From IMG/VR virus record IMGVR_UViG_2579778938_000006: a stretch of DNA of 36,312 bases, one strand, 5' to 3'. Made by a program: the position numbers and the translations under genes. This document shows, one piece after another, positions 4,133 through 33,692 of the stretch. The DNA comes from a virus (Duplodnaviria; Heunggongvirae; Uroviricota; Caudoviricetes). The number at the start of each line of letters is the position of its first letter. Position 1 is the stretch's first letter. The notes below the pieces were generated by a model. It saw nothing but the letters and a program-made list of their open reading frames with translations, was not told where the DNA came from and did no database searches.

Positions 4133-4199
4133 CCAACTAATGAAATTAATGGCGTAAACCCGCCGAGCATCCCTTTATCTAAATTCAGGAGAATTGATT

Positions 4200-4433
4200 A
4201 TGCGTAATATTGAAATCCTCACGACTAAAACCGGACCGGATGATGCTGGGCTTAATATTTTACTGACAGAGGCTCGTCTGGAAGAACGCCGGGCAAGGGC
4301 TGAAGCAATGGCAGCTCGCCTTGATAGCCTGGCGTGTCATATCTCATCCCGTCAGCTAAACCACGTGGAAGCGGCAGAACTGCTGCGTGTGACTGCTGAA
4401 GCAATCCAGAACGAAGCGCAGGAGATCCACTAA
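4200..4433 (+). CDS. Hypothetical early protein (77 aa)
   Basis: AGGAG SD upstream; ATG at 4200. Confidence 0.45.
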   Translation: MRNIEILTTKTGPDDAGLNILLTEARLEERRARAEAMAARLDSLACHISSRQLNHVEAAELLRVTAEAIQNEAQEIH

Positions 4434-4660
4434 TGGCTGATGCAATGGATCTCGTACAGCAGCGCGTTGAAGAAGAACGCCAGCGCCATATCCGTGCTGC
4501 CCGTGCCAAAACACCGGGCGTGTCTCGCGTGCTTTGCATTGAGTGTGAAGCGCCAATTCCGCCAGCACGCCGCCGTGCCATTCCGGGTGTGCAGCTTTGC
4601 ATTACCTGCCAGGAAATTGCAGAGCTGAAAGGCAAACATTACAACGGAGGTGCTGTATGA
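4433..4660 (+). CDS. TraR/DksA-family C4 zinc-finger protein
   Basis: CIECEAPIP...(17 aa)...CITCQ pattern; P2 orf82-like position upstream of the replication gene. Confidence 0.7.
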   Translation: MADAMDLVQQRVEEERQRHIRAARAKTPGVSRVLCIECEAPIPPARRRAIPGVQLCITCQEIAELKGKHYNGGAV

Positions 4661-5514
4661 GCACCATCCTGAAATGGGCGGGAAATAAAATCGCCATTAT
4701 GTCCGAACTGAAAAAACACCTTCCTGCTGGCCCGCGACTGGTTGAACCTTTCGCGGGTTCCTGTGCTGTGATGATGGAGACGGATTACCCCAGCTATCTT
4801 GTTGCGGATATTAATCCTGATTTAATCAACCTCTATAAAAAGGTTGCTGCTGATTGCGAGGCGTTTATATCTCGTGCCAGAGCTTTATTTGAGGAAGCAA
4901 ACAGGGAGGTGGCTTATTACAACATAAGGCAGGAGTTTAATTACTCCACTGAAATTACTGATTTCATGAAAGCGGTATATTTCCTGTATCTCAATCGTCA
5001 TGGTTACCGTGGATTATGTCGCTATAACAAGAGCGGGCATTTCAACATTCCGAACGGTAATTATAAAAATCCGTATTTCCCTGAAAAAGAAATTCGCGCA
5101 TTTGCAGAGAAAGCCCAGCGTGCAACGTTTATCTGCGCAAGCTTTGATGAAACGCTGGCGATGCTGCAGGTGGGGGATGTGGTGTATTGCGATCCGCCGT
5201 ATGACGGTACGTTTTCCGGCTATCACACTGATGGCTTCACTGAAGATGACCAGTATCACCTGGCATCCGTTCTTGAACATCGATCATCTGAAGGTCATCC
5301 GGTCATTGTTTCTAACAGTGACACATCCCTGATTCGTTCGCTGTATCGCAATTTCACTCACCACTACATCAAGGCAAAACGCAGCATCGGCGTGTCGGCT
5401 GGCGAGAGTAAATCTGCAACAGAAATCATTGCTGTTTCCGGGGCGCGCTGCTGGGTGGGATTTGATCCTTCGCGTGGCGTGGATAGTTCTGCCATGTACG
5501 GAGTGCGTGCATGA
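4657..5514 (+). CDS. dam: DNA adenine (N6) methyltransferase, Dam family
   Basis: Motif I FAGSCAV and catalytic DPPY; N-terminal WAGNK; ATGA overlap with the upstream gene. Confidence 0.85.
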
Positions 5515-7925
5515 GCCATGATGATATGAACAACTGCAGCGGCTTTAACGAGGTCGCCGCAGCATTCTCATGGAACAGCCCGAAAAAGGCTATTAACCCT
5601 TATCTGGACCCGGCGGAAGTTGCGCCGGTTTCTGCGCTTTCAAACCTGATCACTCTGTACGCTGCCGATAACGAGCAGGAACAACTGCGCCGCGAGGCAC
5701 TGAGTGATCAGGTCTGGGAGCGTTATTTCTTTAATGAATCCCGTGATCCTGTCCAACGCGAAATGGAGCAGGATAAGCTCATTAGCCGGGCAAAGCTGGC
5801 GCATGAGCAGCAGCGTTTTAACCCGGACATGGTCATTCTGGCAGACGTTAACGCCCAGCCTTCCCATATCAGCAAGCCGCTGATGCAACGTATTGAATAC
5901 TTCAGCAGTCTGGGCAGGCCAAAGGCTTATTCCCGCTATTTGCGTGAGACGATTAAGCCATGTCTGGAACGACTGGAGCATGTACGCGACAGTCAGCTAT
6001 CCACTTCTTTTCGCTTTATGGCAAGCCATGAAGGGCTGGACGGCCTGCTGATCCTGCCTGAAATGAGTCAGGAGCAGGTGAAACGCTTGTCTACCCTTGT
6101 CGCTGCGCATATGAGCATGTGCCTTGATGCAGCTTGTGGCGATTTGTATGTCACCGATGACGTTAAGCCAGAAGAAATCCGCAAGACATGGGAAAAGGTG
6201 GCAGCGGAAACCCTGCGTCTGGATGTCATCCCGCCTGCGTTTGATCAACTCCGCCGGAAAAGAAACCGCCGTAAACCCGTGCCCTATGAACTCATTCCGG
6301 GTTCGCTGGCGCGTATGTTGTGCGCCGACTGGTGGTATCGGAAATTATGGAAGATGCGTTGCGAATGGCGGGAAGAGCAGTTGCGCGCTGTCTGCCTGGT
6401 CAGCAAAAAAGCATCTCCTTATGTCAGCTATGAAGCCGTGATGCATAAACGTGAGCAGCGCCGTAAGTCGCTGGAGTTTTTCCGTTCTCATGAACTGGTG
6501 AACGAAGACGGCGACACGCTGGACATGGAGGATGTGGTAAACGCCAGCAGCAGCAACCCTGCGCATCGCCGCAATGAGATGATGGCCTGTGTTAAAGGTC
6601 TGGAGCTTATCGCGGAAATGCGCGGTGACTGCGCCGTTTTCTACACCATCACCTGTCCGTCACGTTTCCATTCCACGCTAAATAACGGCAGGCCCAACCC
6701 GACCTGGACAAATGCGACGGTAAGACAAAGCAGTGATTATCTGGTCGGCATGTTTGCTGCATTTCGTAAGGCGATGCACAAAGCCGGATTGCGCTGGTAT
6801 GGCGTGCGGGTGGCTGAGCCGCATCATGACGGTACAGTTCACTGGCACCTGTTGTGTTTTATGCGCAAAAAAGATCGCCGCGCCATTACTGCTTTGTTGC
6901 GTAAGTTTGCCATTCGTGAAGACCGCGAGGAGCTGGGTAATAACACAGGACCACGCTTTAAGTCTGAGCTGATAAACCCGCGCAAAGGTACGCCAACAAG
7001 CTACATCGCGAAATACATCAGTAAGAACATTGACGGGCGTGGTCTGGCTGGCGAGATCAGCAAGGAAACGGGTAAATCCCTGCGTGATAACGCTGAATAC
7101 GTTAATGCCTGGGCGTCTCTGCATCGTGTTCAGCAATTCCGCTTCTTTGGTATTCCAGGGCGTCAGGCTTACCGTGAACTGCGGTTGTTGGCTGGTCAGG
7201 CGGCAAGGCAGCAGGGTGACAAAAAAGCAGGTGCGCCGGTACTGGATAACCCGCGCCTTGATGCCATCCTGGCTGCTGCTGATGCTGGCTGTTTTGCCAC
7301 CTACATTATGAGGCAGGGCGGCGTGCTGGTTCCTCGCAAATATCACTTGATCAGAACCGCTTATGAAATCAATGAAGAGCCGACCGCCTATGGCGATCAC
7401 GGTATTCGTATTTATGGCATCTGGTCACCCATTGCAGAGGGCAAGATCTGCACTCATGCAGTGAAGTGGAAAATGGTTCGTAAAGCCGTTGACGTTCAGG
7501 AGGCGGCAGCCGACCAGGGCGCTTGCGCCCCTTGGACTCGTGGCAATAACTGTCCCCTTGCTGAAAATTTGTACCAACAAGGGAAAGACAAATCAGCTGA
7601 TGGGGATACCAGAACGGATATCACCCGTATGGATGACAAGGAGTTGCACGATTACCTGCACAGTATGAACAAAAAAGAACGCCGGGAACTGGCTGCAAGG
7701 TTACGCCTGGTGAAACCGAAACGGCGTAGAGACTACAAACAGCGAATTACAGACCATCAACGACAGCAGCTCGTCTATGAACTGAAGTCCAGAGGATTTG
7801 ATGGCAGCGAGAAAGAGGTCGATTTACTCCTTCGCGGCGGCAGTATTCCGTCAGGAGCAGGCCTGCGTATCTTCTATCGGAACCAGCGTTTGCAGGAAGA
7901 TGATAAGTGGCGGGATCTGTATTAA
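5511..7925 (+). CDS. A: Replication initiation protein A (rolling-circle HUH endonuclease, P2 gpA family)
   Basis: 804-aa protein with HUH-like VHWHLL and tyrosine block [10 protein letters not shown]; position after the early regulators. Confidence 0.85.
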
Positions 7926-8078: not shown

Positions 8079-8267
8079 ATGCAGGACTATTTTTTGGAGT
8101 CTTTGAAGCTCCAGCGCATTGATTTTTTTCTTAAGCTTGTAGCGGCTAGTGAGTGTAGTGATGAAGAGAAGGGGCTGGCTCTGCAGTGGGTTTCTGAATT
8201 GACTGATGAACTCATGGCAAAAATCAGAAGCCACGAATACAACCGCTCAATGGATGTCATCAGCTGA
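8079..8267 (+). CDS. tum: Tum-like SOS-inducible small protein (candidate antirepressor N-terminal module, 62 aa)
   Basis: AGGAGGA SD; directly downstream of the LexA box; position of 186 tum. Confidence 0.45.
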   Translation: MQDYFLESLKLQRIDFFLKLVAASECSDEEKGLALQWVSELTDELMAKIRSHEYNRSMDVIS

Positions 8268-8277
8268 GGTGACTTTT

Positions 8278-8511
8278 ATGCGCATTGAAATAATGATCGA
8301 TAAAGAGCAGAAAATTAGCCAGTCTACCCTGGACGCCCTTGAATCCGAGCTTTACCGCAATCTGCGCCCCCTGTATCCCAAAACGGTAATTCGTATCCGC
8401 AAAGGTAGCTCTAACGGTGTGGAACTGACCGGACTGCAACTGGACGAAGAAAGAAAACAAGTGATGAAAATTATGCAGAAGGTGTGGGAAGACGACAGCT
8501 GGCTGCATTAA
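8278..8511 (+). CDS. DinI-family protein (77 aa)
   Basis: Translation MRIEIMIDK...LDALESEL...IRIRKG...ERKQVMKIMQKVWEDDSW aligns by eye with E. coli DinI (MRIEVTIAK...IDALAGEL...KQRISEILQETWESADDW). Confidence 0.75.
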   Translation: MRIEIMIDKEQKISQSTLDALESELYRNLRPLYPKTVIRIRKGSSNGVELTGLQLDEERKQVMKIMQKVWEDDSWLH

Positions 8512-9016
8512 GAAACGTTGCTGGCGTCTGAACTTGCTTCTGGCGTCAGCAAGGTTGAATAACGAGCTGTGCGAGGCGTTAGCCATCTGATCAAAAGACA
8601 TCAAATATCATATTGTATATCGTGGTCAAACGCTGGAAACAATCATTCCCGGTCAGAGGGGCTTCTTTCAATGTCTAAAAGAGTGAGATAGAGGATACAG
8701 GATGGGAAGAGCTTATGATGATTGTTCTTGGATTGACTTGGAATATTTGATGTCCATTATCTAATGGACTTGGTCTTGATAGTTATCACGAAAGAGGAAG
8801 CCAACGTCATGTATTTGAAGAGTATCTCTTACCTTTTGATTAATTATTGTCCAAGTTTTTCAAAAGCTTCTTATCTGGCGGTCGATACATGATTTACTGT
8901 TGGATATGGTATTTAAAATTAATCTTTACACTGTGGTATATGCAGAATAGGATATTATCAATACAATCAAACTGTTTTCATACGGTTGTTAATATTGCAA
9001 TGTTATAGGTAATGTC

Positions 9017-10135
9017 ATGTATCTTTTCAAGTATTACCGTCCGGACTTCTTCTTCGAGAAAGCTATTCGTTATAATGAATTATATTTTTCCGCTCCTGCG
9101 CAATTGAATGATCCTAATGATCTCAATATAGATTATCGTTTTGATAATAAATTGAAATTATGGGATATTTTATTGCGTTCTCCTTGCGATAAATCCTATA
9201 AAAATTTGAGTCACATATTAGATTTGAGTAATTTGAATATACATAAGGGATTGAATCGTATTTTTAGAGGAAAAAAAATAAAAAGTAGCATTGAGTCATT
9301 AGATAGCCTGTTTGACTCACACGTTGATGAGATACGTAAGATCATAAATGATGGTTTACTACCTATCAATGTGATTAATTCCGCTATTTATGGGAATATT
9401 CCTGAACCACGCCAATTTTTGGTCTCACTTTGCGAGAACAGTATCAAAGAAAGGTTGTATAGGAAAATAGTTCCTGCAGTATTCAGTGTGTCATTTTCAG
9501 CTAATGCGTTAGATCGTATGATGTGGGCGCATTATGCTGCAGGCTTTAGTGGTTGTGTTGTGATTTATGAAACGCAGGATTTTAATATTAATGGCGTACC
9601 ACATCCTGGAATGAAGTTAAGAGAAAATTTATTTTCATCAGATAAAATTAATTTTCCAGTTAAGCCAATAAAATATAGTAATCAAGCTAAAGAGGTTTCA
9701 CTTCTAGACCCAAGCGCAAATGTTGCAGAGTTATTTTTAACTAAAAATAGATTTTGGAGATATGAAGCTGAATATCGAATGTTTATTCCAGAGGCAAATG
9801 CAGGAATAGGGAGTGAGCGGCATGTTCAAAGACACGTAAATCGAAATATTGGACATGTTTTTCATCATGATGCTAATGTTGTTAAAGGGATCATTTTTGG
9901 TCCTAGAATGTGTGAAATGAAAAAAGAAAGCATATGGAATTGTATCAAGTCAAATATGGAGAATTCAAATTCAACAATATGTTATTTTTTTGACTCTGAG
10001 TTATCAGCATCAGGAAAGATTACTATTTCAAAAGGGCAACGAGCGGAAAAAATGAAAAATTTCCCTTTGTTCAGGAACAAGTTAAGTCAGACGGAAATGG
10101 CTAAAGTTTTGAAGGAAATTGGCATTACGAACTAA
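9017..10135 (+). CDS. Hypothetical 372-aa cargo protein, DUF2971-like N-terminus; candidate anti-phage gene
   Basis: Very AT-rich; N-terminus LFKYYRPDFFFEKAIRYNELYFSAPAQLNDPNDL resembles the DUF2971 signature as I recall it; own terminator downstream; in the P2 old/tin hotspot position. Confidence 0.6.
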   Translation: MYLFKYYRPDFFFEKAIRYNELYFSAPAQLNDPNDLNIDYRFDNKLKLWDILLRSPCDKSYKNLSHILDLSNLNIHKGLNRIFRGKKIKSSIESLDSLFDSHVDEIRKIINDGLLPINVINSAIYGNIPEPRQFLVSLCENSIKERLYRKIVPAVFSVSFSANALDRMMWAHYAAGFSGCVVIYETQDFNINGVPHPGMKLRENLFSSDKINFPVKPIKYSNQAKEVSLLDPSANVAELFLTKNRFWRYEAEYRMFIPEANAGIGSERHVQRHVNRNIGHVFHHDANVVKGIIFGPRMCEMKKESIWNCIKSNMENSNSTICYFFDSELSASGKITISKGQRAEKMKNFPLFRNKLSQTEMAKVLKEIGITN

Positions 10136-10201
10136 CCTAACAACAGTGCATGCCTATGCTGCCTGAATTTGCATGACCGTTTGAGGATCGTTTTTGCTAA
10201 G

Positions 10202-10225
10202 GCCCGCCAGAACTGGCGGGCTTTT
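10202..10225 (+). terminator. Rho-independent terminator (GCCCGCC-agaact-GGCGGGC-TTTT)
   Basis: 7-bp GC stem, 6-nt loop, T-run; 67 bp downstream of the 372-aa gene stop. Confidence 0.7.
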
Positions 10226-10270
10226 GCGTGGATCAGGCACCTGCATGAAAACCACTACACAAAGCGGGCA

Positions 10271-10283
10271 GGCGTGGCGGGGA
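10271..10283. other. cos: cos-like motif GGCGTGGCGGGGA (possible cohesive-end site)
   Basis: Matches the first 13 nt of the P2/186 19-nt cohesive end as I remember it (GGCG[A/T]GGCGGGGAAAGCA); diverges after that. Confidence 0.3.
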
Positions 10284-10409
10284 TACGAGCGCGCGCTAGA
10301 AACGTTTACTGATATTCTTGTAGTACATTGCATTTTTCTTTTTTTATGTCATATCATTAGCCATTTGAATAGGACATTATTATCAATTTGTTGTCTCTGA
10401 GGATAAGTT

Positions 10410-12191
10410 ATGAATTTTGATGCAACACCACTAAATATAAAAAACATTCTATCTGTAAAACAAAGATATGTTATTCCTCGTAATCAACGTGAGTTTAGTT
10501 GGGAAAAGCTTCAGCTTGAAGAGTTATGGCAAGATATTGTCAGAAACATAAGGTTGAATGAAGATGGACAGAACTTGGAGTGTTCAGAATATTTTATAGG
10601 GACTATTGTTCTTTCTGGAGCAGATAGTGATGATGTATTAGAAGTGGTTGATGGACAACAACGATTTTCAGTTATTACTATATTGCTTTCATTAATATCG
10701 CGTAAATTGCGTTCCTTAGGGCAAGATTCATTAGCGGATGATATATTTAAAACATATATCGTTACTGTGAGTCCTACATTTAGCAGAAGCCAATTAGCTT
10801 CAAATGGTGAGACATTTATTGAAAAATTAGCAAAAAATAGCGATAGAACATATTTTAAGTTAAAATATCAAGATCGCGAAGAGCATCAAGTTGATGAATC
10901 TTGTGAAGAGGATGTACGTATAAGTTATGCAGGAATTTTTCTTTCTAGAAAACTAGGGAGGAAATCACTCTGTTCTGCATTGTTGCGAGATGGTGCAAAA
11001 CATTATAATAACCAAGATTATATATTTTGTTTGACTGCTGTATATAGAATGATTACCAATTATTTGAAGTTGGTAAAAATATCTGTAGGTAAGGAGGATG
11101 ATGCTTATGATATTTTTGAAGTGTTGAATGCTCGAGGGATAAACTTAAGTTCAATTGATTTGATAAAGAATAAAGTATTCCAAACTTGCACTCAAACATA
11201 TCCGGTAGATATTGCAAAAACAAAATGGGATTATATCGTTACTCAAATTGAGTCTAGGGATAGTAATAGCACTATTGCTGATTATATTAGAACGTGGTGG
11301 CTTTCTAAGTATAATTATATTGGAGAAGATCAACTTTATCGTGCTTTTAAACGTGAGATTCAAGATGAGAATACTTTATTGTCATCAGCATCATTTCTGA
11401 ACGAATTATATGATGATGTTGAATTATACTGTAAAATAATAGCGCCAAATACAGATGACTGGCCTCAACCTGATCAGCGTGAAATTTACAACTCGTTAAA
11501 AGCATTCGAGATTTTTAATGTGAGTATTCCTCGACCATTTGTACTCTCATTACTTAGAAAACGTAAAGAGAAACCGAGAGCCCTTACACAATCAATGCTG
11601 ATAGAATGTTTGAAGTCCTTAGAGTCATTTCACTTTAAGTTTAATGCAGTATGTCGTCTAAGACCATCTGGAATCGATGCAAAATATTCTGTATTAGCAG
11701 TAAGAATGAATAAGGCATTAAATAAAAGAGATGTTGAGGGTGTTATTAATGACGCGTTAGATTATTTTACACAGAAAGGGCCTTCAGAAAATATATTCAA
11801 ACAAGCATTTTCAAAGAATATTGTTTATACAAATAAAAAGTCTGGGCAAAGGAAGTTGATTGTTTATATTTTTGACAAATTGGAACGTATCAGACGAGGG
11901 ACACGAGAGTTAAAAATGGATATAGTTTCTTTGGAACACATATCATCTCAAAGCAAAACTAACGAGTCAGTCGTGGGTATGATTGGTAATTTACTACCAC
12001 TCTGTTTTTCACTTAATGAAGATTGCAAAAATTATGAGTTGCACAAAAAAATAGAATCTTATAAAAAATCTGATTTAAAATTAGTTACAGAGTTTGTTAG
12101 TGAGTCAGAAGCAAGAGAACATAAATGGGATGATTCATTAATAAAAGAAAGAACAGATAGCTTGGCGTTAGAAACGTTTGCTAAAATATAA
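10410..12191 (+). CDS. DUF262 (ParB-like/GmrS) + DUF1524 (His-Me finger/GmrD) fusion nuclease, 593 aa; GmrSD/BrxU-like type IV restriction candidate
   Basis: Motifs VIPRNQREFSWE, VDGQQRFSVI, FEVLNARGINLSSIDLIKNK (DUF262) and SLEHISSQ...GNLLPL...NEDCKN (DUF1524-like); AT-rich; GAGGA SD. Confidence 0.8.
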   Translation: MNFDATPLNIKNILSVKQRYVIPRNQREFSWEKLQLEELWQDIVRNIRLNEDGQNLECSEYFIGTIVLSGADSDDVLEVVDGQQRFSVITILLSLISRKLRSLGQDSLADDIFKTYIVTVSPTFSRSQLASNGETFIEKLAKNSDRTYFKLKYQDREEHQVDESCEEDVRISYAGIFLSRKLGRKSLCSALLRDGAKHYNNQDYIFCLTAVYRMITNYLKLVKISVGKEDDAYDIFEVLNARGINLSSIDLIKNKVFQTCTQTYPVDIAKTKWDYIVTQIESRDSNSTIADYIRTWWLSKYNYIGEDQLYRAFKREIQDENTLLSSASFLNELYDDVELYCKIIAPNTDDWPQPDQREIYNSLKAFEIFNVSIPRPFVLSLLRKRKEKPRALTQSMLIECLKSLESFHFKFNAVCRLRPSGIDAKYSVLAVRMNKALNKRDVEGVINDALDYFTQKGPSENIFKQAFSKNIVYTNKKSGQRKLIVYIFDKLERIRRGTRELKMDIVSLEHISSQSKTNESVVGMIGNLLPLCFSLNEDCKNYELHKKIESYKKSDLKLVTEFVSESEAREHKWDDSLIKERTDSLALETFAKI

Positions 12192-12197
12192 GTTCAG

Positions 12198-12218
12198 TGG
12201 CAGGTATAGTACCTGCCA
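12198..12218. terminator. Perfect hairpin (TGGCAGGTA-tag-TACCTGCCA) between convergent genes; possible bidirectional terminator
   Basis: 9-bp stem with 3-nt loop between the stop of the DUF262 gene and the stop of Q; no strong T-run. Confidence 0.4.
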
Positions 12219-12227
12219 TTATTCAAT

Positions 12228-13265
12228 TCACATACACTCCACAGAGTATTCACTGAATGAGATGATGTTTTTTTTAGCCCATTCATTAAGTTGCAGAATA
12301 TGTTTTTGAATTGGTAGTAACTCATTCATAACAAATACTTTCGCGGCCTTTTCCACATCCCCAAACCCCCCAACATTATTAGGCATAATCCCCATCATTT
12401 GCGGTGGCACACGATGCGCCGCCATCATGTCATCCCGGCTCACGTTCTTGATGTTTAGAAACTCATCCTTCGCCGCCACTTCTGACAACGGGATAATCTG
12501 AAGTCCGTCCTTTTTCCCGTTAGGCGAGTACATAAATAGGTTGCGGAAGTTACCTGGTCCTTTGGCGCTTTTCATCGCATTGCGGAGGTTGTTCACGTCC
12601 TCCTGGTTCTGCGCGGCATCGGTCATGTACATGATGAAGCCAGCATGACTGCCGTTTATGTAATACTTTCGACGGAACAGCGTGGCGGACTCATTGAGCA
12701 GGGCGGACGGAATAGCAGAAAGATAGCCGGGCAGGCCATAGATCTCCTGATTTATGTCCGGTTCCATCAGATGGAAAATGCTGCCTTTCGTGAACTGATA
12801 CGGCTGCGTAGTCATGCCGTATTGCACAAACCAGTAGGTATCCAGGTCTAATCCGCGTCGGGTGTATTTTGCCAGAGCAGGCTCAAGGGCGATAACTTCA
12901 CCGAACCGGTTTGTGCGTTTCTCCAGGTAGGCGTTACCAAATACCAGATAGTCCTGCACAAAACGCGAAAAAGCCTGCTGGCTGAGCAGCGGATGAGGGA
13001 TATAGGTACTGGTCAGAATGTTGCATTTCACCGCAATTGGTGAACTGTGGTGCACGGCAGCGCGGAAGGTGCGCGCCAGTCCGTCAAAGCTGACGGGCGG
13101 CTCATACCAGCGATCTGTCTGTACGCATTCCACATAGTCCAGCAGTTCTCGGCGGTCCAGAACAGGAACGGGATCGCCGAAGCTGAATACTTCGGCTGTA
13201 GTCTGGCTTTTAAGCTGGATCTGTTTCGTCGCCGCAGCGCGGTTTTTCTTACTCTTTCCCATCAA
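12228..13265 (-). CDS. Q: Portal protein (P2 gpQ)
   Basis: 345-aa ORF, P2 synteny (Q-P leftward, O-N-M-L rightward); overlaps the P stop. Confidence 0.85.
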   Translation of the reverse strand: MMGKSKKNRAAATKQIQLKSQTTAEVFSFGDPVPVLDRRELLDYVECVQTDRWYEPPVSFDGLARTFRAAVHHSSPIAVKCNILTSTYIPHPLLSQQAFSRFVQDYLVFGNAYLEKRTNRFGEVIALEPALAKYTRRGLDLDTYWFVQYGMTTQPYQFTKGSIFHLMEPDINQEIYGLPGYLSAIPSALLNESATLFRRKYYINGSHAGFIMYMTDAAQNQEDVNNLRNAMKSAKGPGNFRNLFMYSPNGKKDGLQIIPLSEVAAKDEFLNIKNVSRDDMMAAHRVPPQMMGIMPNNVGGFGDVEKAAKVFVMNELLPIQKHILQLNEWAKKNIISFSEYSVECM

Positions 13266-20145: not shown

Positions 20146-20539
20146 AGCGGTGCCTTATGTCCGCAATAACCCGGAAAAACTGCATCTGTTTGTGGATAAC
20201 GGTTCGCTGGTTGCCACGGGGGCCAGCTCCATGTCGTGGGAGTACCGTTACACCCTGAACGCGGTGATTGAGGATTTCAGCGGCGACCAGAATCTGTTGA
20301 TGGCCCCGGTTTTGCTGTGGCTGAGGGATAACCAGCCCGATGCCATCAATAACCCGGCGTTACGGGAAAAACTATTCACCTTTGAGGTGGATATTCTGCG
20401 CAACGATGTCTGTGATATCAGCTTGAACCTGCAACTGACGGAACGTGTGCTGGTCAGCACTGACGGCAGTGTGTCGAGCGTTGAAGCTGTAGCGGAACCC
20501 GATGAACCTGAAGAAATGTGGACGGTGAAACGTGGCTGA
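20087..20539 (+). CDS. R: Tail completion protein R (P2 gpR)
   Basis: 150-aa ORF, synteny; exact start uncertain. Confidence 0.7.
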   Translation: MRVRSETVNKPQSLRHALNKAVPYVRNNPEKLHLFVDNGSLVATGASSMSWEYRYTLNAVIEDFSGDQNLLMAPVLLWLRDNQPDAINNPALREKLFTFEVDILRNDVCDISLNLQLTERVLVSTDGSVSSVEAVAEPDEPEEMWTVKRG

Positions 20540-20984
20540 ACTGCAGAAAGTGGACGACTGGCTGAGTGCCTTGCTGGCGAATCTGGAACCAGCCGCCAGA
20601 AGCCGCATGATGCGCCAGCTGGCGCAGGAACTGCGCCGGACACAGCAGCAGAATATCAGGATGCAGCGCAACCCTGACGGCAGCAGTTATGAACCGCGAC
20701 GGGTAACAGCACGAAGTAAAAAAGGGCGCATCAAACGTCAGATGTTTGCAAAGCTGCGCACCACAAAATACCTGAAAACCGCCGCCAGCGCGGATTCTGC
20801 CAGCGTACAGTTTGAAGGTAAGGTGCAGCGCATTGCCCGCGTTCATCATTACGGCCTGCGCGATCGCGTCAGTCCAAAGGGGGGAGTCATTAAGTATCCA
20901 TCCCGAAAATTGCTGGGTTTAAATGAACATACTGAAAATGAAGTAAGAGATTTACTTTTAAAGTATTTTTTGATGAAAAATTAG
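20532..20984 (+). CDS. S: Tail completion protein S (P2 gpS)
   Basis: 150-aa ORF; the last ~30 codons run into AT-rich DNA. Confidence 0.8.
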   Translation: MAELQKVDDWLSALLANLEPAARSRMMRQLAQELRRTQQQNIRMQRNPDGSSYEPRRVTARSKKGRIKRQMFAKLRTTKYLKTAASADSASVQFEGKVQRIARVHHYGLRDRVSPKGGVIKYPSRKLLGLNEHTENEVRDLLLKYFLMKN

Positions 20985-20989
20985 AATGT

Positions 20990-21520
20990 TTACGCACTTA
21001 ATAAACTTAAATAACTTTTTATGCTTTGGCAAAAAGGGAAAAGGTCTATTTTAATTTTCCAGTTTTTTTTGTTTTGAACCCCAGAAGCAATAATAGAACC
21101 ATCCCAATATTTTATTCCATTTTTGCCGGTCTTTTTTGTTAACTCAAAACTTAATGCGTGAATAATTTTATTGCAGCATTCGCGTATAGAACCTTTAACA
21201 TGACCATCTATAACAAAAAGTATATTTTCATGTTCTTCAAATGCTTCTTTCTCAGGTGAGTAATCTGGGTTCCACTCATGTTCACTAGTGTCTTGGAGAA
21301 TTCGTAGTTTTGTACAAAGGCTAATAAGATTGTTGCTAATGGTATATTCCAACCATCCGTTGTACGATAACTCCTCCATTTCAAATTCAGTTACTATAGA
21401 ATCATCATATACTTTCTGTGTGGAATATATACGCTGTAAATAAAATTCAGATGAACAGCATAATTGCTCAATTATTCTTGCGTGTTCTTCTATAGCGTAA
21501 TAATCAATTGGATGGCTCAT
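20990..21520 (-). CDS. Hypothetical moron protein (176 aa; 189 aa if started at 21559) between tail genes S and V on the opposite strand
   Basis: AT-rich ORF antiparallel to the late operons; AAAGG SD before ATG 21520; convergent with S, divergent from V. Confidence 0.6.
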   Translation of the reverse strand: MSHPIDYYAIEEHARIIEQLCCSSEFYLQRIYSTQKVYDDSIVTEFEMEELSYNGWLEYTISNNLISLCTKLRILQDTSEHEWNPDYSPEKEAFEEHENILFVIDGHVKGSIRECCNKIIHALSFELTKKTGKNGIKYWDGSIIASGVQNKKNWKIKIDLFPFCQSIKSYLSLLSA

Positions 21521-21551
21521 TCTTTTACCTTTCTTCGATTGGAATTGTATT

Positions 21552-21569
21552 TGTGTCATTTACCACACA
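21552..21569. promoter_or_regulatory. TGT-N12-ACA dyad (Ogr/Delta site) upstream of V (PV-like late promoter)
   Basis: TGTgtcatttaccacACA centred ~55 bp upstream of the V ATG. Confidence 0.45.
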
Positions 21570-21615
21570 AGGACGTATTGATGCCATAGATTCAAGGTCC
21601 GTGCAACCTAACCCT

Positions 21616-22194
21616 ATGAACGCACAACTAACCGAAATCATGCGCCTTATCACCAACCTGATCCGCACTGGGGTAGTCACCGAAGTGGATCGGGAGAACT
21701 GGCTTTGCCGGGTGAAAACGGGCGAGCTTGAAACCAACTGGATCAGCTGGCTGACGCTGCGTGCCGGGAATGCCCGGACATGGTGGCGACCATCGGAAGG
21801 TGAGCAGGTGGTGCTGCTGAGTCTGGGCGGAAATCTGGAAACCGCCTTTGCGTTGCCCGCCATCTATTCGAATCAGTTCGCTCCACCGTCGACGTCGGCG
21901 GATGCCTGCGTGACAGAGCATCCTGACGGCGGCTGGTTTGAATATGAACCCGCCACCGGGCGCTGGTATGTCAGGGGCATCAAATCCATGGTTATTGAGG
22001 CTGTCGACAACATCACCATGAAAACCAGTGAGTTTGTACTGGAGGCTGACCGCACGCGCATTAACAGCGAAGTGGTGATCAATGGTGGCGTTACCCAGGG
22101 CGGCGGAGCGATGAGTTCTAACGGGATTGTGGTTGATGCGCATCAGCATACTGGCGTCCTGAAAGGCGGCGACACAACCGGAGGCCCGGTATGA
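21616..22194 (+). CDS. V: Baseplate spike/assembly protein V (P2 gpV)
   Basis: 192 aa; synteny V-W-J-I. Confidence 0.8.
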   Translation: MNAQLTEIMRLITNLIRTGVVTEVDRENWLCRVKTGELETNWISWLTLRAGNARTWWRPSEGEQVVLLSLGGNLETAFALPAIYSNQFAPPSTSADACVTEHPDGGWFEYEPATGRWYVRGIKSMVIEAVDNITMKTSEFVLEADRTRINSEVVINGGVTQGGGAMSSNGIVVDAHQHTGVLKGGDTTGGPV

Positions 22195-33534: not shown

Positions 33535-33580
33535 AACAAAAAACCCATCAACCTTGAACCGAAATGGCGGGGTTGATGGG
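33535..33580 (-). terminator. Rho-independent terminator downstream of ybjL (minus strand)
   Basis: 10-bp stem CCCATCAACC / GGTTGATGGG followed on the minus strand by TTTTTTGTT; loop is long (17 nt). Confidence 0.5.
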
Positions 33581-33692
33581 CTCCACAAAATGGGGACATC
33601 AAAGAAAAGCAGTGGCACTAATTAAGACTGATGCCCTGCGGAAAAGTTCTGCGGTTGTGCAAAAAAATTTCATTTTCAGGGCAACTTCAGTT

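Follow-up and report, generated by a model that had tools for sequence, protein, structure and literature searches.

Phage P2 carries the genes old, tin and fun(Z), which are AT-rich, non-essential and expressed from the prophage, lie at variable loci and exclude other phages (PMC9122126). Between the tail-completion gene S and the baseplate spike gene V, the orf30 site of P2 is a variable region of horizontally acquired genes (PMC3091744, PMC6823313), and a defence hotspot has been reported downstream of gpL, among the tail genes in P2-like phages (PMC13586616); the analysis of Rousset et al. 2022 was confined to the gpA-gpQ hotspot. Among standalone proteins of small or medium size with a HEPN or HEPN-like domain, AbiD/AbiF/Abi2, AbiV, AbiJ, AbiU2 and the V. 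cholerae cassette Esos give phage resistance by growth arrest, with genes that reside in prophages, on plasmids or in integron cassettes (PMC3710099; bioRxiv 2024.07.02.601686). Here we analyse IMG/VR record IMGVR_UViG_2579778938_000006, a stretch of 36,312 nucleotides (the window) that contains a P2-like (Peduoviridae) prophage and, between S and V, an AT-rich island with a reverse-strand open reading frame (ORF) for a protein of 176 residues. The island is cargo at the known P2 orf30 locus. It encodes a soluble protein whose family is large, widespread, unnamed and probably HEPN-like, and the gene is a good candidate for single-gene anti-phage defence.

A cargo gene, or moron, at this known P2 hotspot is ordinary; the family to which the cargo belongs is uncharacterised and goes unrecognised by defence-finding tools. 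With the P2 orf30 locus the island shares its position between S and V and its variable, AT-rich, horizontally acquired content. P2 orf30 itself measures 261 bp (PMC6823313) and differs from the cargo described here in size, the one property by which the two were compared. Unlike the P2 orf30 locus as described, the module in the window also replaces the C terminus of S and the V promoter. The likeness to old, tin and fun(Z) is one of type, that of AT-rich cargo expressed from the prophage at a variable locus; those genes differ in that they occupy other loci, encode unrelated proteins (Old is an ATPase-Toprim nuclease) and have demonstrated phenotypes. In contrast to the Abi proteins, the family gave no match to Pfam Abi_2, Abi_C or AbiV, and Esos was compared by description only.

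The G+C content (GC) in 200-bp windows is 0.27-0.35 across approximately 20880-21600, as against 0.54-0.61 in both flanks, where S (20532..20984; Pfam Phage_tail_S, PF05069) and V (21616..22194; Phage_base_V, PF04717, with Apex) are located. To define the borders we used alignment to phages 500465-1 and 4LV2017, in which only 68 bp separate S from V (an empty site). The left junction falls at ~20875-20885, within S and ~36 codons ahead of its stop, and the right junction at ~21600-21603, ~13 nt 5' of the V ATG, so that ~160 bp of the empty-site relatives has been swapped for ~730 bp, among them the final ~36 codons of S as well as the late promoter of V. A simple insertion was therefore rejected; the event was a replacement that takes in both the S tail and the V promoter. 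The first-pass annotation, made from the window alone, had described an AT-rich island of ~650 bp in a GC-rich tail region and an AT-rich S C terminus of ~30 codons, with a recombination junction inside S; the island, its composition and the junction stand, and the two lengths become ~730 bp and about 36 codons. The final 110 nt of S have a GC of 0.31 versus 0.58 for its first 330 nt, and the same pattern recurs in all five occupied loci that we compared (0.31-0.37 for the last 110 nt, 0.57-0.62 for the remainder of S). The imported S tail is homologous to the empty-site S tail yet divergent from it, and the Phage_tail_S model spans residues 3-146. An Rfam scan of the island returned no match, and RNA folding of its flanks yielded nothing notable (z-scores of -0.5 to +0.9).

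A megablast search of 50,697 phage genomes recovered the entire 1.8-kb S-V region (97% identity) only in Escherichia phage Cartapus, and in a tblastn search of the same number of phage records with the protein Cartapus was again the sole match; dozens of Klebsiella and Escherichia relatives matched both flanks with a span of 1,232 bp versus 1,801 bp here. In complete E. coli genomes the island occurs at at least 99% identity in 22 of 5,426, each time as a single chromosomal copy beside S, and a related S-V region is found in 1,040, ~98% of which are without this gene. Where both flanks of the junction were matched in a spread sample of these, the site is empty in approximately two thirds of cases and otherwise holds different cargo (DUF6216, TIR-domain and FRG-domain proteins and several hypotheticals). 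The position between S and V, the absence from close relatives and the atypical composition are those of a moron, and the comparison of the junction across relatives, which the annotation had named as the means to distinguish cargo from a universally conserved gene, came out on the side of cargo. The orientation of other cargo at the junction varies among E. coli strains 410, W13-16 and BL21 (L044, L045 and L046): the TIR-domain gene is co-directional with the late genes, the FRG-domain gene is antiparallel to them, and the DUF6216 gene of BL21 is antiparallel with its 3' end overlapping the end of S by 59 nt. In one IMG/VR contig (3300048924_000172) S and the family member are separated by ~1.4 kb of extra DNA (~4213-5631), a hint that another cargo gene has been stacked at this hotspot.

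The ORF is present as first described, on the reverse strand and antiparallel to the late genes, and alleles 75%, 59% and 52% identical to it occupy the identical site in the same antiparallel orientation in P2-like prophages of Salmonella, Enterobacter and Pantoea. Among IMG/VR contigs with the subfamily, V adjoins the gene in 19 of 19 and S is directly adjacent in 17 of 19; the stop codons of S and the ORF are 5 bp apart in the occupied loci, except in Pantoea, where the two genes overlap by 12 bp. Comparison of the ORF with the Salmonella allele gave a ratio of nonsynonymous to synonymous substitution rates (dN/dS) of 0.10, equal to that of S and V, and more distant pairs are saturated at synonymous sites. 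The ORF is thus a real gene under purifying selection. Between the window and the Enterobacter locus, identity is 60% for the ORF and 51% for the S tail versus 83% for S(1-113) and 82% for V; the ORF and the S tail diverge together, much faster than the phage backbone, which means that the module alleles are either older than their backbones or evolving faster. The GC of the module stays at 0.32-0.38 across divergent alleles. Taken together, these data show a three-part module (S tail, ORF and V promoter) that has long been resident in a sub-lineage of P2-like phages, so that of the original suggestion of an insertion or recombination the cargo nature is retained and a one-off event is not. 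Homologous recombination, within S on one side and at the V start on the other, probably moves the module from one P2-like phage to another.

Upstream of the gene lies a TGT-N12-ACA dyad, which we take to be the Ogr/Delta-type activator site of the V late promoter established in P2 biology. All 7 loci compared, of which five are occupied and two are empty, have an equivalent dyad centred 55-56 nt 5' of the V ATG in differing surroundings; a position conserved to this degree is not due to chance, and because the dyad is kept in all loci the imported DNA brings its own V late promoter element. The minus-strand ORF 20990..21559 would encode 189 residues, and an internal ATG at 21520 gives 176. 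We assign the gene to the 21520 start, as the annotation had favoured, because the homologues are 176-177 residues long, because their M-x-H N terminus is conserved (His-3 in 85% of 107 family members) and because a Shine-Dalgarno sequence, AAAGG, lies 7 nt upstream. The 189-residue start was rejected: its ATG falls within the dyad and has no Shine-Dalgarno sequence, and its position is not kept in the loci L033, L034 and L036.

A word-indexed search identified 12 relatives of the 176-residue protein, and an exhaustive profile search extended these to 432 clusters (E <= 1e-3), of which 131 remain at E <= 1e-10; almost all of the 432 are standalone proteins of 170-210 residues. All sources label the members hypothetical, none has a Pfam domain, and the sole family assignment is phrog_18838 (PHROG 18838), whose function is unannotated. 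Scans of Pfam, NCBIfam and PADLOC gave no match for the protein itself and nothing reproducible for sets of 13 and 107 relatives; in PADLOC-DB v2.0.0 no family matched the window protein, and the 107 members gave isolated single-member hits with a best E of 7e-4. Papers searched for the accession, PHROG and locus-tag identifiers of the gene contained no mention of it. Conservation was computed over the 107 diverse members, whose mean column identity is 17%. Against this background, Arg-113 (93%), Asn-117 (99%), Lys-118 (97%) and His-121 (99%) form a motif at the end of a predicted helix (residues 112-120) and the start of the next loop, with the family signature [IV]-R-E-x-C-N-K-[IV]-I-H-A, and outside the motif His-3 is joined by Arg-73 (99%), Asp-77 (88%), Gly-147 (97%) and Trp-154 (99%). 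The conserved polar constellation suggests an active site.

The AlphaFold2 model of the window protein has a predicted local distance difference test score (pLDDT) of 89 and a predicted template modelling score of 0.85, and that of a ~24% identical Brevundimonas member (pLDDT 94) has a concordant architecture: two long helices, an insert, a short motif helix ending in His-121, a beta-sheet insert and a C-terminal helix. A spurious ORF or a decaying remnant in AT-rich junk DNA would have been conceivable, since chance alone can produce long ORFs and the expression level in overnight LB culture is near background. The low dN/dS and saturated synonymous sites between alleles, the 432 homologous clusters across phyla with invariant residues, the confident models and the conserved length and N terminus exclude it.

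Structural ranking placed two HEPN structures among the best matches of the window protein, 3jrt in 4th and the HEPN toxin 5yep in 8th position, and four among those of the Brevundimonas model, 7ae2 (a HEPN toxin) 3rd, 1jog (HI0074) 4th, 5yep 5th and 3jrt 7th, with 1ylm, 8xdj, 1wwp and ANT(4') ranked lower. Foldseek against the PDB returned nothing significant (best E of 0.18). The entry 3jrt (Vpc_cass2) belongs to the 'integron cassette HEPN' family of Anantharaman et al., according to whom helix 2 of HEPN domains has a conserved acidic residue, inserts often separate helix 2 from helix 3, and Csx1 has a beta-hairpin right after the motif (PMC3710099). The model has the four-helix up-and-down bundle core of a HEPN domain, with an insert between helices 2 and 3, an acidic residue in helix 2 and the motif at the end of helix 3. 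Arg-113, followed by Glu-114, and His-121 occupy the structural position of the HEPN motif, and Asn-117-x3-His-121 is in register with the canonical RNxxxH, with Cys-116 in place of the Arg. The core is therefore most likely, as modelled, a divergent HEPN-type four-helix bundle with a beta-sheet insert.

The family also departs from HEPN in several respects. Its conserved Arg lies one helical turn earlier than the canonical one, giving an Arg-to-His spacing of 7 where Rx4-6H is defined, and the helix-2 pair is R-x3-D (Arg-73 and Asp-77, at the C-terminal end of the helix) rather than E-x3-[KR]. Unlike the MNT-associated HEPN toxins (5yep, 7ae2 and 1jog), it has a four-stranded beta-sheet insert and no MNT antitoxin partner. 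At the level of sequence profiles, no HEPN-type Pfam family matched repeatedly among the 107 members at E <= 1, and a search of PDB sequences with the family profile (A3) found one chance match at E 0.24 and not a single HEPN chain at E <= 10. Because the motif spacing, the helix-2 pair and the absent profile link do not fit, we call the family HEPN-like and not an established member; we infer the homology from the predicted fold and the position of the motif only, and on these grounds consider it likely. A non-canonical HEPN active site is plausible for the family.

Variant HEPN motifs are documented, and the clan also holds non-catalytic, substrate-binding versions (PMC3710099), which raises the alternative of a binder or superinfection-exclusion factor that would bind nucleic acid or a protein of the incoming phage or the host with no cleavage of RNA. 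The unmet Rx4-6H spacing agrees with this alternative. P2 Tin, an excluding protein, acts by binding a phage protein. The near-invariance (93-99%) of the Arg, Asn, Lys and His of the motif and of a second Arg across more than 100 members at ~17% identity is nevertheless a catalytic signature, and the His is placed as the catalytic His is in HEPN RNases; a purely binding role is thus unlikely.

The family members in 28 loci from representative bacterial genomes have no P2 tail genes nearby, and no neighbouring gene is conserved across these loci. It moves as a single gene, often with a much lower GC than that of the host genome (for example, 0.37 versus 0.62). Its contexts, together with the features of the window, are collected in Table 1. 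In the Aliivibrio locus (L004), repeat copies at 5853-5984 and 6547-6678 flank the gene, and in V. mimicus (L016) VCR-like repeats stand between every ORF; a single ORF bounded by attC, which defines an integron cassette, is thus found for these distant homologues and not for the copy in the window. Integron cassettes with no known function are a proven source of small single-gene defence systems, among them Esos, which has only a HEPN-like domain (bioRxiv 2024.07.02.601686). The Rhodobacterales member looks like a third gene of an AbiE operon, and the Aeromonas copy may be inovirus cargo. The cassette immediately upstream of the Aliivibrio gene (L004, 4736-5866) encodes a Lit-like U49 peptidase (PADLOC Lit, E 2e-23); Lit is a classical phage-exclusion protease. 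Vibrio and Pseudoalteromonas loci were also considered as a P2-like donor and rejected, there being no S, V, R or W homologues near those copies.

Table 1. Features of the S-V module in the window (positions of the window) and genomic contexts of distant family members (positions, where given, of the respective locus)
Feature	Position	Strand	Basis or context
AT-rich cargo module, ~730 bp	20875..21602	.	GC and junctions relative to empty-site relatives
Imported AT-rich 3' end of S (last ~36 codons and stop)	20875..20984	+	GC; pattern in five occupied loci
Cargo gene, 176-residue cytoplasmic protein, PHROG 18838	20990..21520	-	Homologue length, N terminus, Shine-Dalgarno sequence
Codons of the motif R113-E-C-C-N117-K118-I-I-H121-A122, predicted active-site helix	21156..21184	-	Computed from the 21520 start
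Divergent regulatory region, ORF start to V start	21521..21615	.	Length 87-100 bp in every occupied locus examined
TGT-N12-ACA dyad, V late promoter	21552..21569	+	Equivalent in 7/7 loci
Upstream in-frame ATG (189-residue reading)	21557..21559	-	Inside the dyad, without Shine-Dalgarno sequence
Aliivibrio (L004), V. mimicus (L016)			Single-gene integron cassettes bounded by attC/Vibrio cholerae repeats (VCR)
Five Rhodobacterales genomes (L017, L018, L020, L021, L023)	~4150-6420		Abuts or overlaps the end of AbiEi (DUF6088)-AbiEii
Erysipelotrichia metagenome-assembled genome (L042)			Flanked by GmrSD and a SIR2/PDC-S25 gene, following a PLD-helicase
Brevundimonas (L037-L039)			Close to an MNT-HEPN fusion
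Aeromonas caviae (L040)	6001-6546		Beside Zot, RstB-like and Rep_trans genes of an integrated filamentous phage; tyrosine integrase nearby
Other genome loci			Neighbours include Avs2, PbeA and PDC-S66

These contexts bear on whether the gene might be a selfish toxin or stress-dormancy module, a HEPN-like RNase serving addiction, stabilisation of the element or growth arrest under stress with no specific protection from phage. The fold and motif are toxin-like, the expression of the gene depends on conditions (see below), the family is frequent in integron cassettes, where toxin-antitoxin-like stabilisers abound (bioRxiv 2024.07.02.601686), and a role of this kind was proposed by Anantharaman et al. 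for the integron-cassette HEPN family of 3jrt (PMC3710099). The gene is, however, missing from ~98% of related prophages and so is not needed for prophage maintenance, and the neighbours of its relatives are more often defence genes than classic toxin-antitoxin pairs. Moreover, no antitoxin or conserved partner is found in any context, and addiction modules normally require a labile antidote. This account is unlikely, albeit the least so of the rivals weighed here. Specific partners were rejected in turn: the neighbours do not cluster and two downstream genes of ~280 residues are unrelated, which leaves no conserved partner or antitoxin; a type II toxin-antitoxin system finds no room in the 730-bp module and no conserved neighbour in the 28 loci; and a type III ToxN-like system has neither an upstream repeat array nor a Pfam hit.

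Transcript data exist for the gene in Cartapus, which is prophage 4 of the Crohn's-associated adherent-invasive E. coli strain LF82, where it is LF82_787/CARTA_14 in S1 Table of PMC9928086. The values there are log2(fpkm + 5), where fpkm is fragments per kilobase per million and the floor is 2.32, from data whose strand-specificity is not established. CARTA_14 reaches 3.5 and 2.7 in overnight lysogeny broth (LB), 5.1 and 5.2 after 1 h and 5.9 and 6.0 after 6 h in Dulbecco's modified Eagle's medium (DMEM), and 4.4-5.3 in macrophages; under the same conditions S is at 2.3-3.6 and V at 2.3-4.3, and the CI repressor is at ~5 in LB and ~8 in DMEM (PMC9928086). The gene is thus transcribed in the LF82 lysogen at a low and condition-dependent level, and the absence of a transcript, by which the annotation's proposal could have fallen, was not what the data revealed. 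Expression of CARTA_14 is 6-8x higher in DMEM than in overnight LB, and the genes CARTA_1 and CARTA_44 to CARTA_47 at the other hotspot rise strongly in macrophages (PMC9928086), shifts which together indicate that the expression of Cartapus cargo depends on conditions. The 'moron' LF82_789 was considered as this gene and rejected, being a different gene at the other hotspot; both Cartapus morons named by those authors are other genes. On the minus strand, the hexamer TACAAT (21549..21544) could by eye serve as a -10 element, though a consensus scan did not call it, and a -35 region for it would overlap the dyad.

The position of the gene within the late region, beside a late promoter whose dyad overlaps its upstream region, could alternatively point to a benefit to the phage in the lytic cycle, by counter-defence or host takeover, rather than to lysogenic conversion, and some P2-like phages do carry anti-defence genes, although these are reported to be rare in P2, with 28 elements (PMC13586616). 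In every locus, however, its orientation is opposite to that of all late genes; it is apparently transcribed in the uninduced lysogen, where S and V are silent; and distant members are housed in defence islands and chromosomal integrons that have no phage nearby. A lytic function is accordingly very improbable.

In our judgement there is about an even chance that the protein is a standalone, HEPN-like effector, expressed by the prophage, in abortive infection or phage exclusion. The prophage would express the gene weakly and without dependence on the late operons, and the protein would persist as a latent, metal-independent RNase until infection by a foreign phage activated it, whereupon translation would stop and the infection would be aborted; the gene would then be of the same kind as P2 old, tin and fun. 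The presumed RNase activity, activation by phage and defence phenotype would narrow the function from the defence, exclusion or toxin proposed at first to that of a HEPN-like enzyme. In favour of a role in defence we count the second AT-rich island of the same prophage, with GmrSD/HEC-06 and PDC-S31 genes, and the integron cassettes and AbiE, GmrSD/SIR2 and Avs2 neighbourhoods of the distant members.

Several observations weigh against an effector of this type. The Arg-to-His spacing and the Cys at the position of the canonical Arg are not those of HEPN, no sequence-profile link connects the two, and the closeness of Arg-73 and Asp-77 to the motif in three dimensions is assumed. No phenotype is on record for any family member, and a solo toxin that lacks an antitoxin would have to be held in check by some control mechanism. 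The five AbiE loci represent one clade, so that guilt by association is partly non-independent. Transcription is low and, in overnight LB, near background; the consensus scan of the island called no minus-strand sigma-70 promoter and no terminator; and the authors of the LF82 study did not name CARTA_14 a moron (PMC9928086), as it fell below their 5x cut-off in LB.

As to control, we wondered whether the S tail, the antiparallel ORF and the V promoter might together form a self-contained defence unit with built-in discrimination of self from non-self, an idea that we regard as quite improbable and for which two alternative mechanisms can be drawn. In the first, the phage's own late transcription would run through S into the ORF in the antisense direction and silence the effector during its own lytic cycle; this is suggested by the stop codons that are 5 bp apart or overlapping, by the lack of a terminator in our scan and by the overlap of the dyad with the upstream region of the ORF. 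In the second, the co-diverging C-terminal tail of S would be an 'immune' allele of a target that the effector senses in competing P2-like phages. Were either to hold, this would be a new, non-canonical HEPN defence family with its regulation wired into a structural operon.

Should the effector reading prove correct, the family would constitute a compact single-gene anti-phage effector of 176 residues with hundreds of clusters in Proteobacteria and beyond, and the definition of the HEPN active site would be widened to R-x3-N-K-x2-H. The S-V junction, less studied than the gpA-gpQ hotspot, is a site at which defence-type cargo (TIR, FRG and this family) is exchanged as modules, and modules that rewrite the end of a structural gene together with their own late promoter provide a model for how cargo may be swapped without breaking phage morphogenesis. 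The presence of the gene in Crohn's-associated LF82, with transcript data in hand, makes the hypothesis directly testable in that strain.

Elsewhere in the window, the second and larger AT-rich block of the prophage (8800-12400, GC 0.31-0.35) occupies the gpA-gpQ, or old/tin, hotspot. It contains an ORF for 372 residues (9017-10135, plus strand), a PADLOC PDC-S31/DUF2971 candidate, and one for 593 residues (10410-12191, plus strand) that encodes a GmrSD-type type IV restriction enzyme (HEC-06/Orf5), and a DinI-like gene lies just upstream (8206-8511). The small RNA RybB is encoded at 33535-33613 on the minus strand (Rfam RF00110, 105 bits); as a marker of the host chromosome, it places the right end of the prophage just left of 33535. 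No tRNA gene was found in the window. Near its left end, further AT-rich stretches (GC ~0.35) at 1-800 and 2001-2400 could represent host flank or cargo near the integrase.

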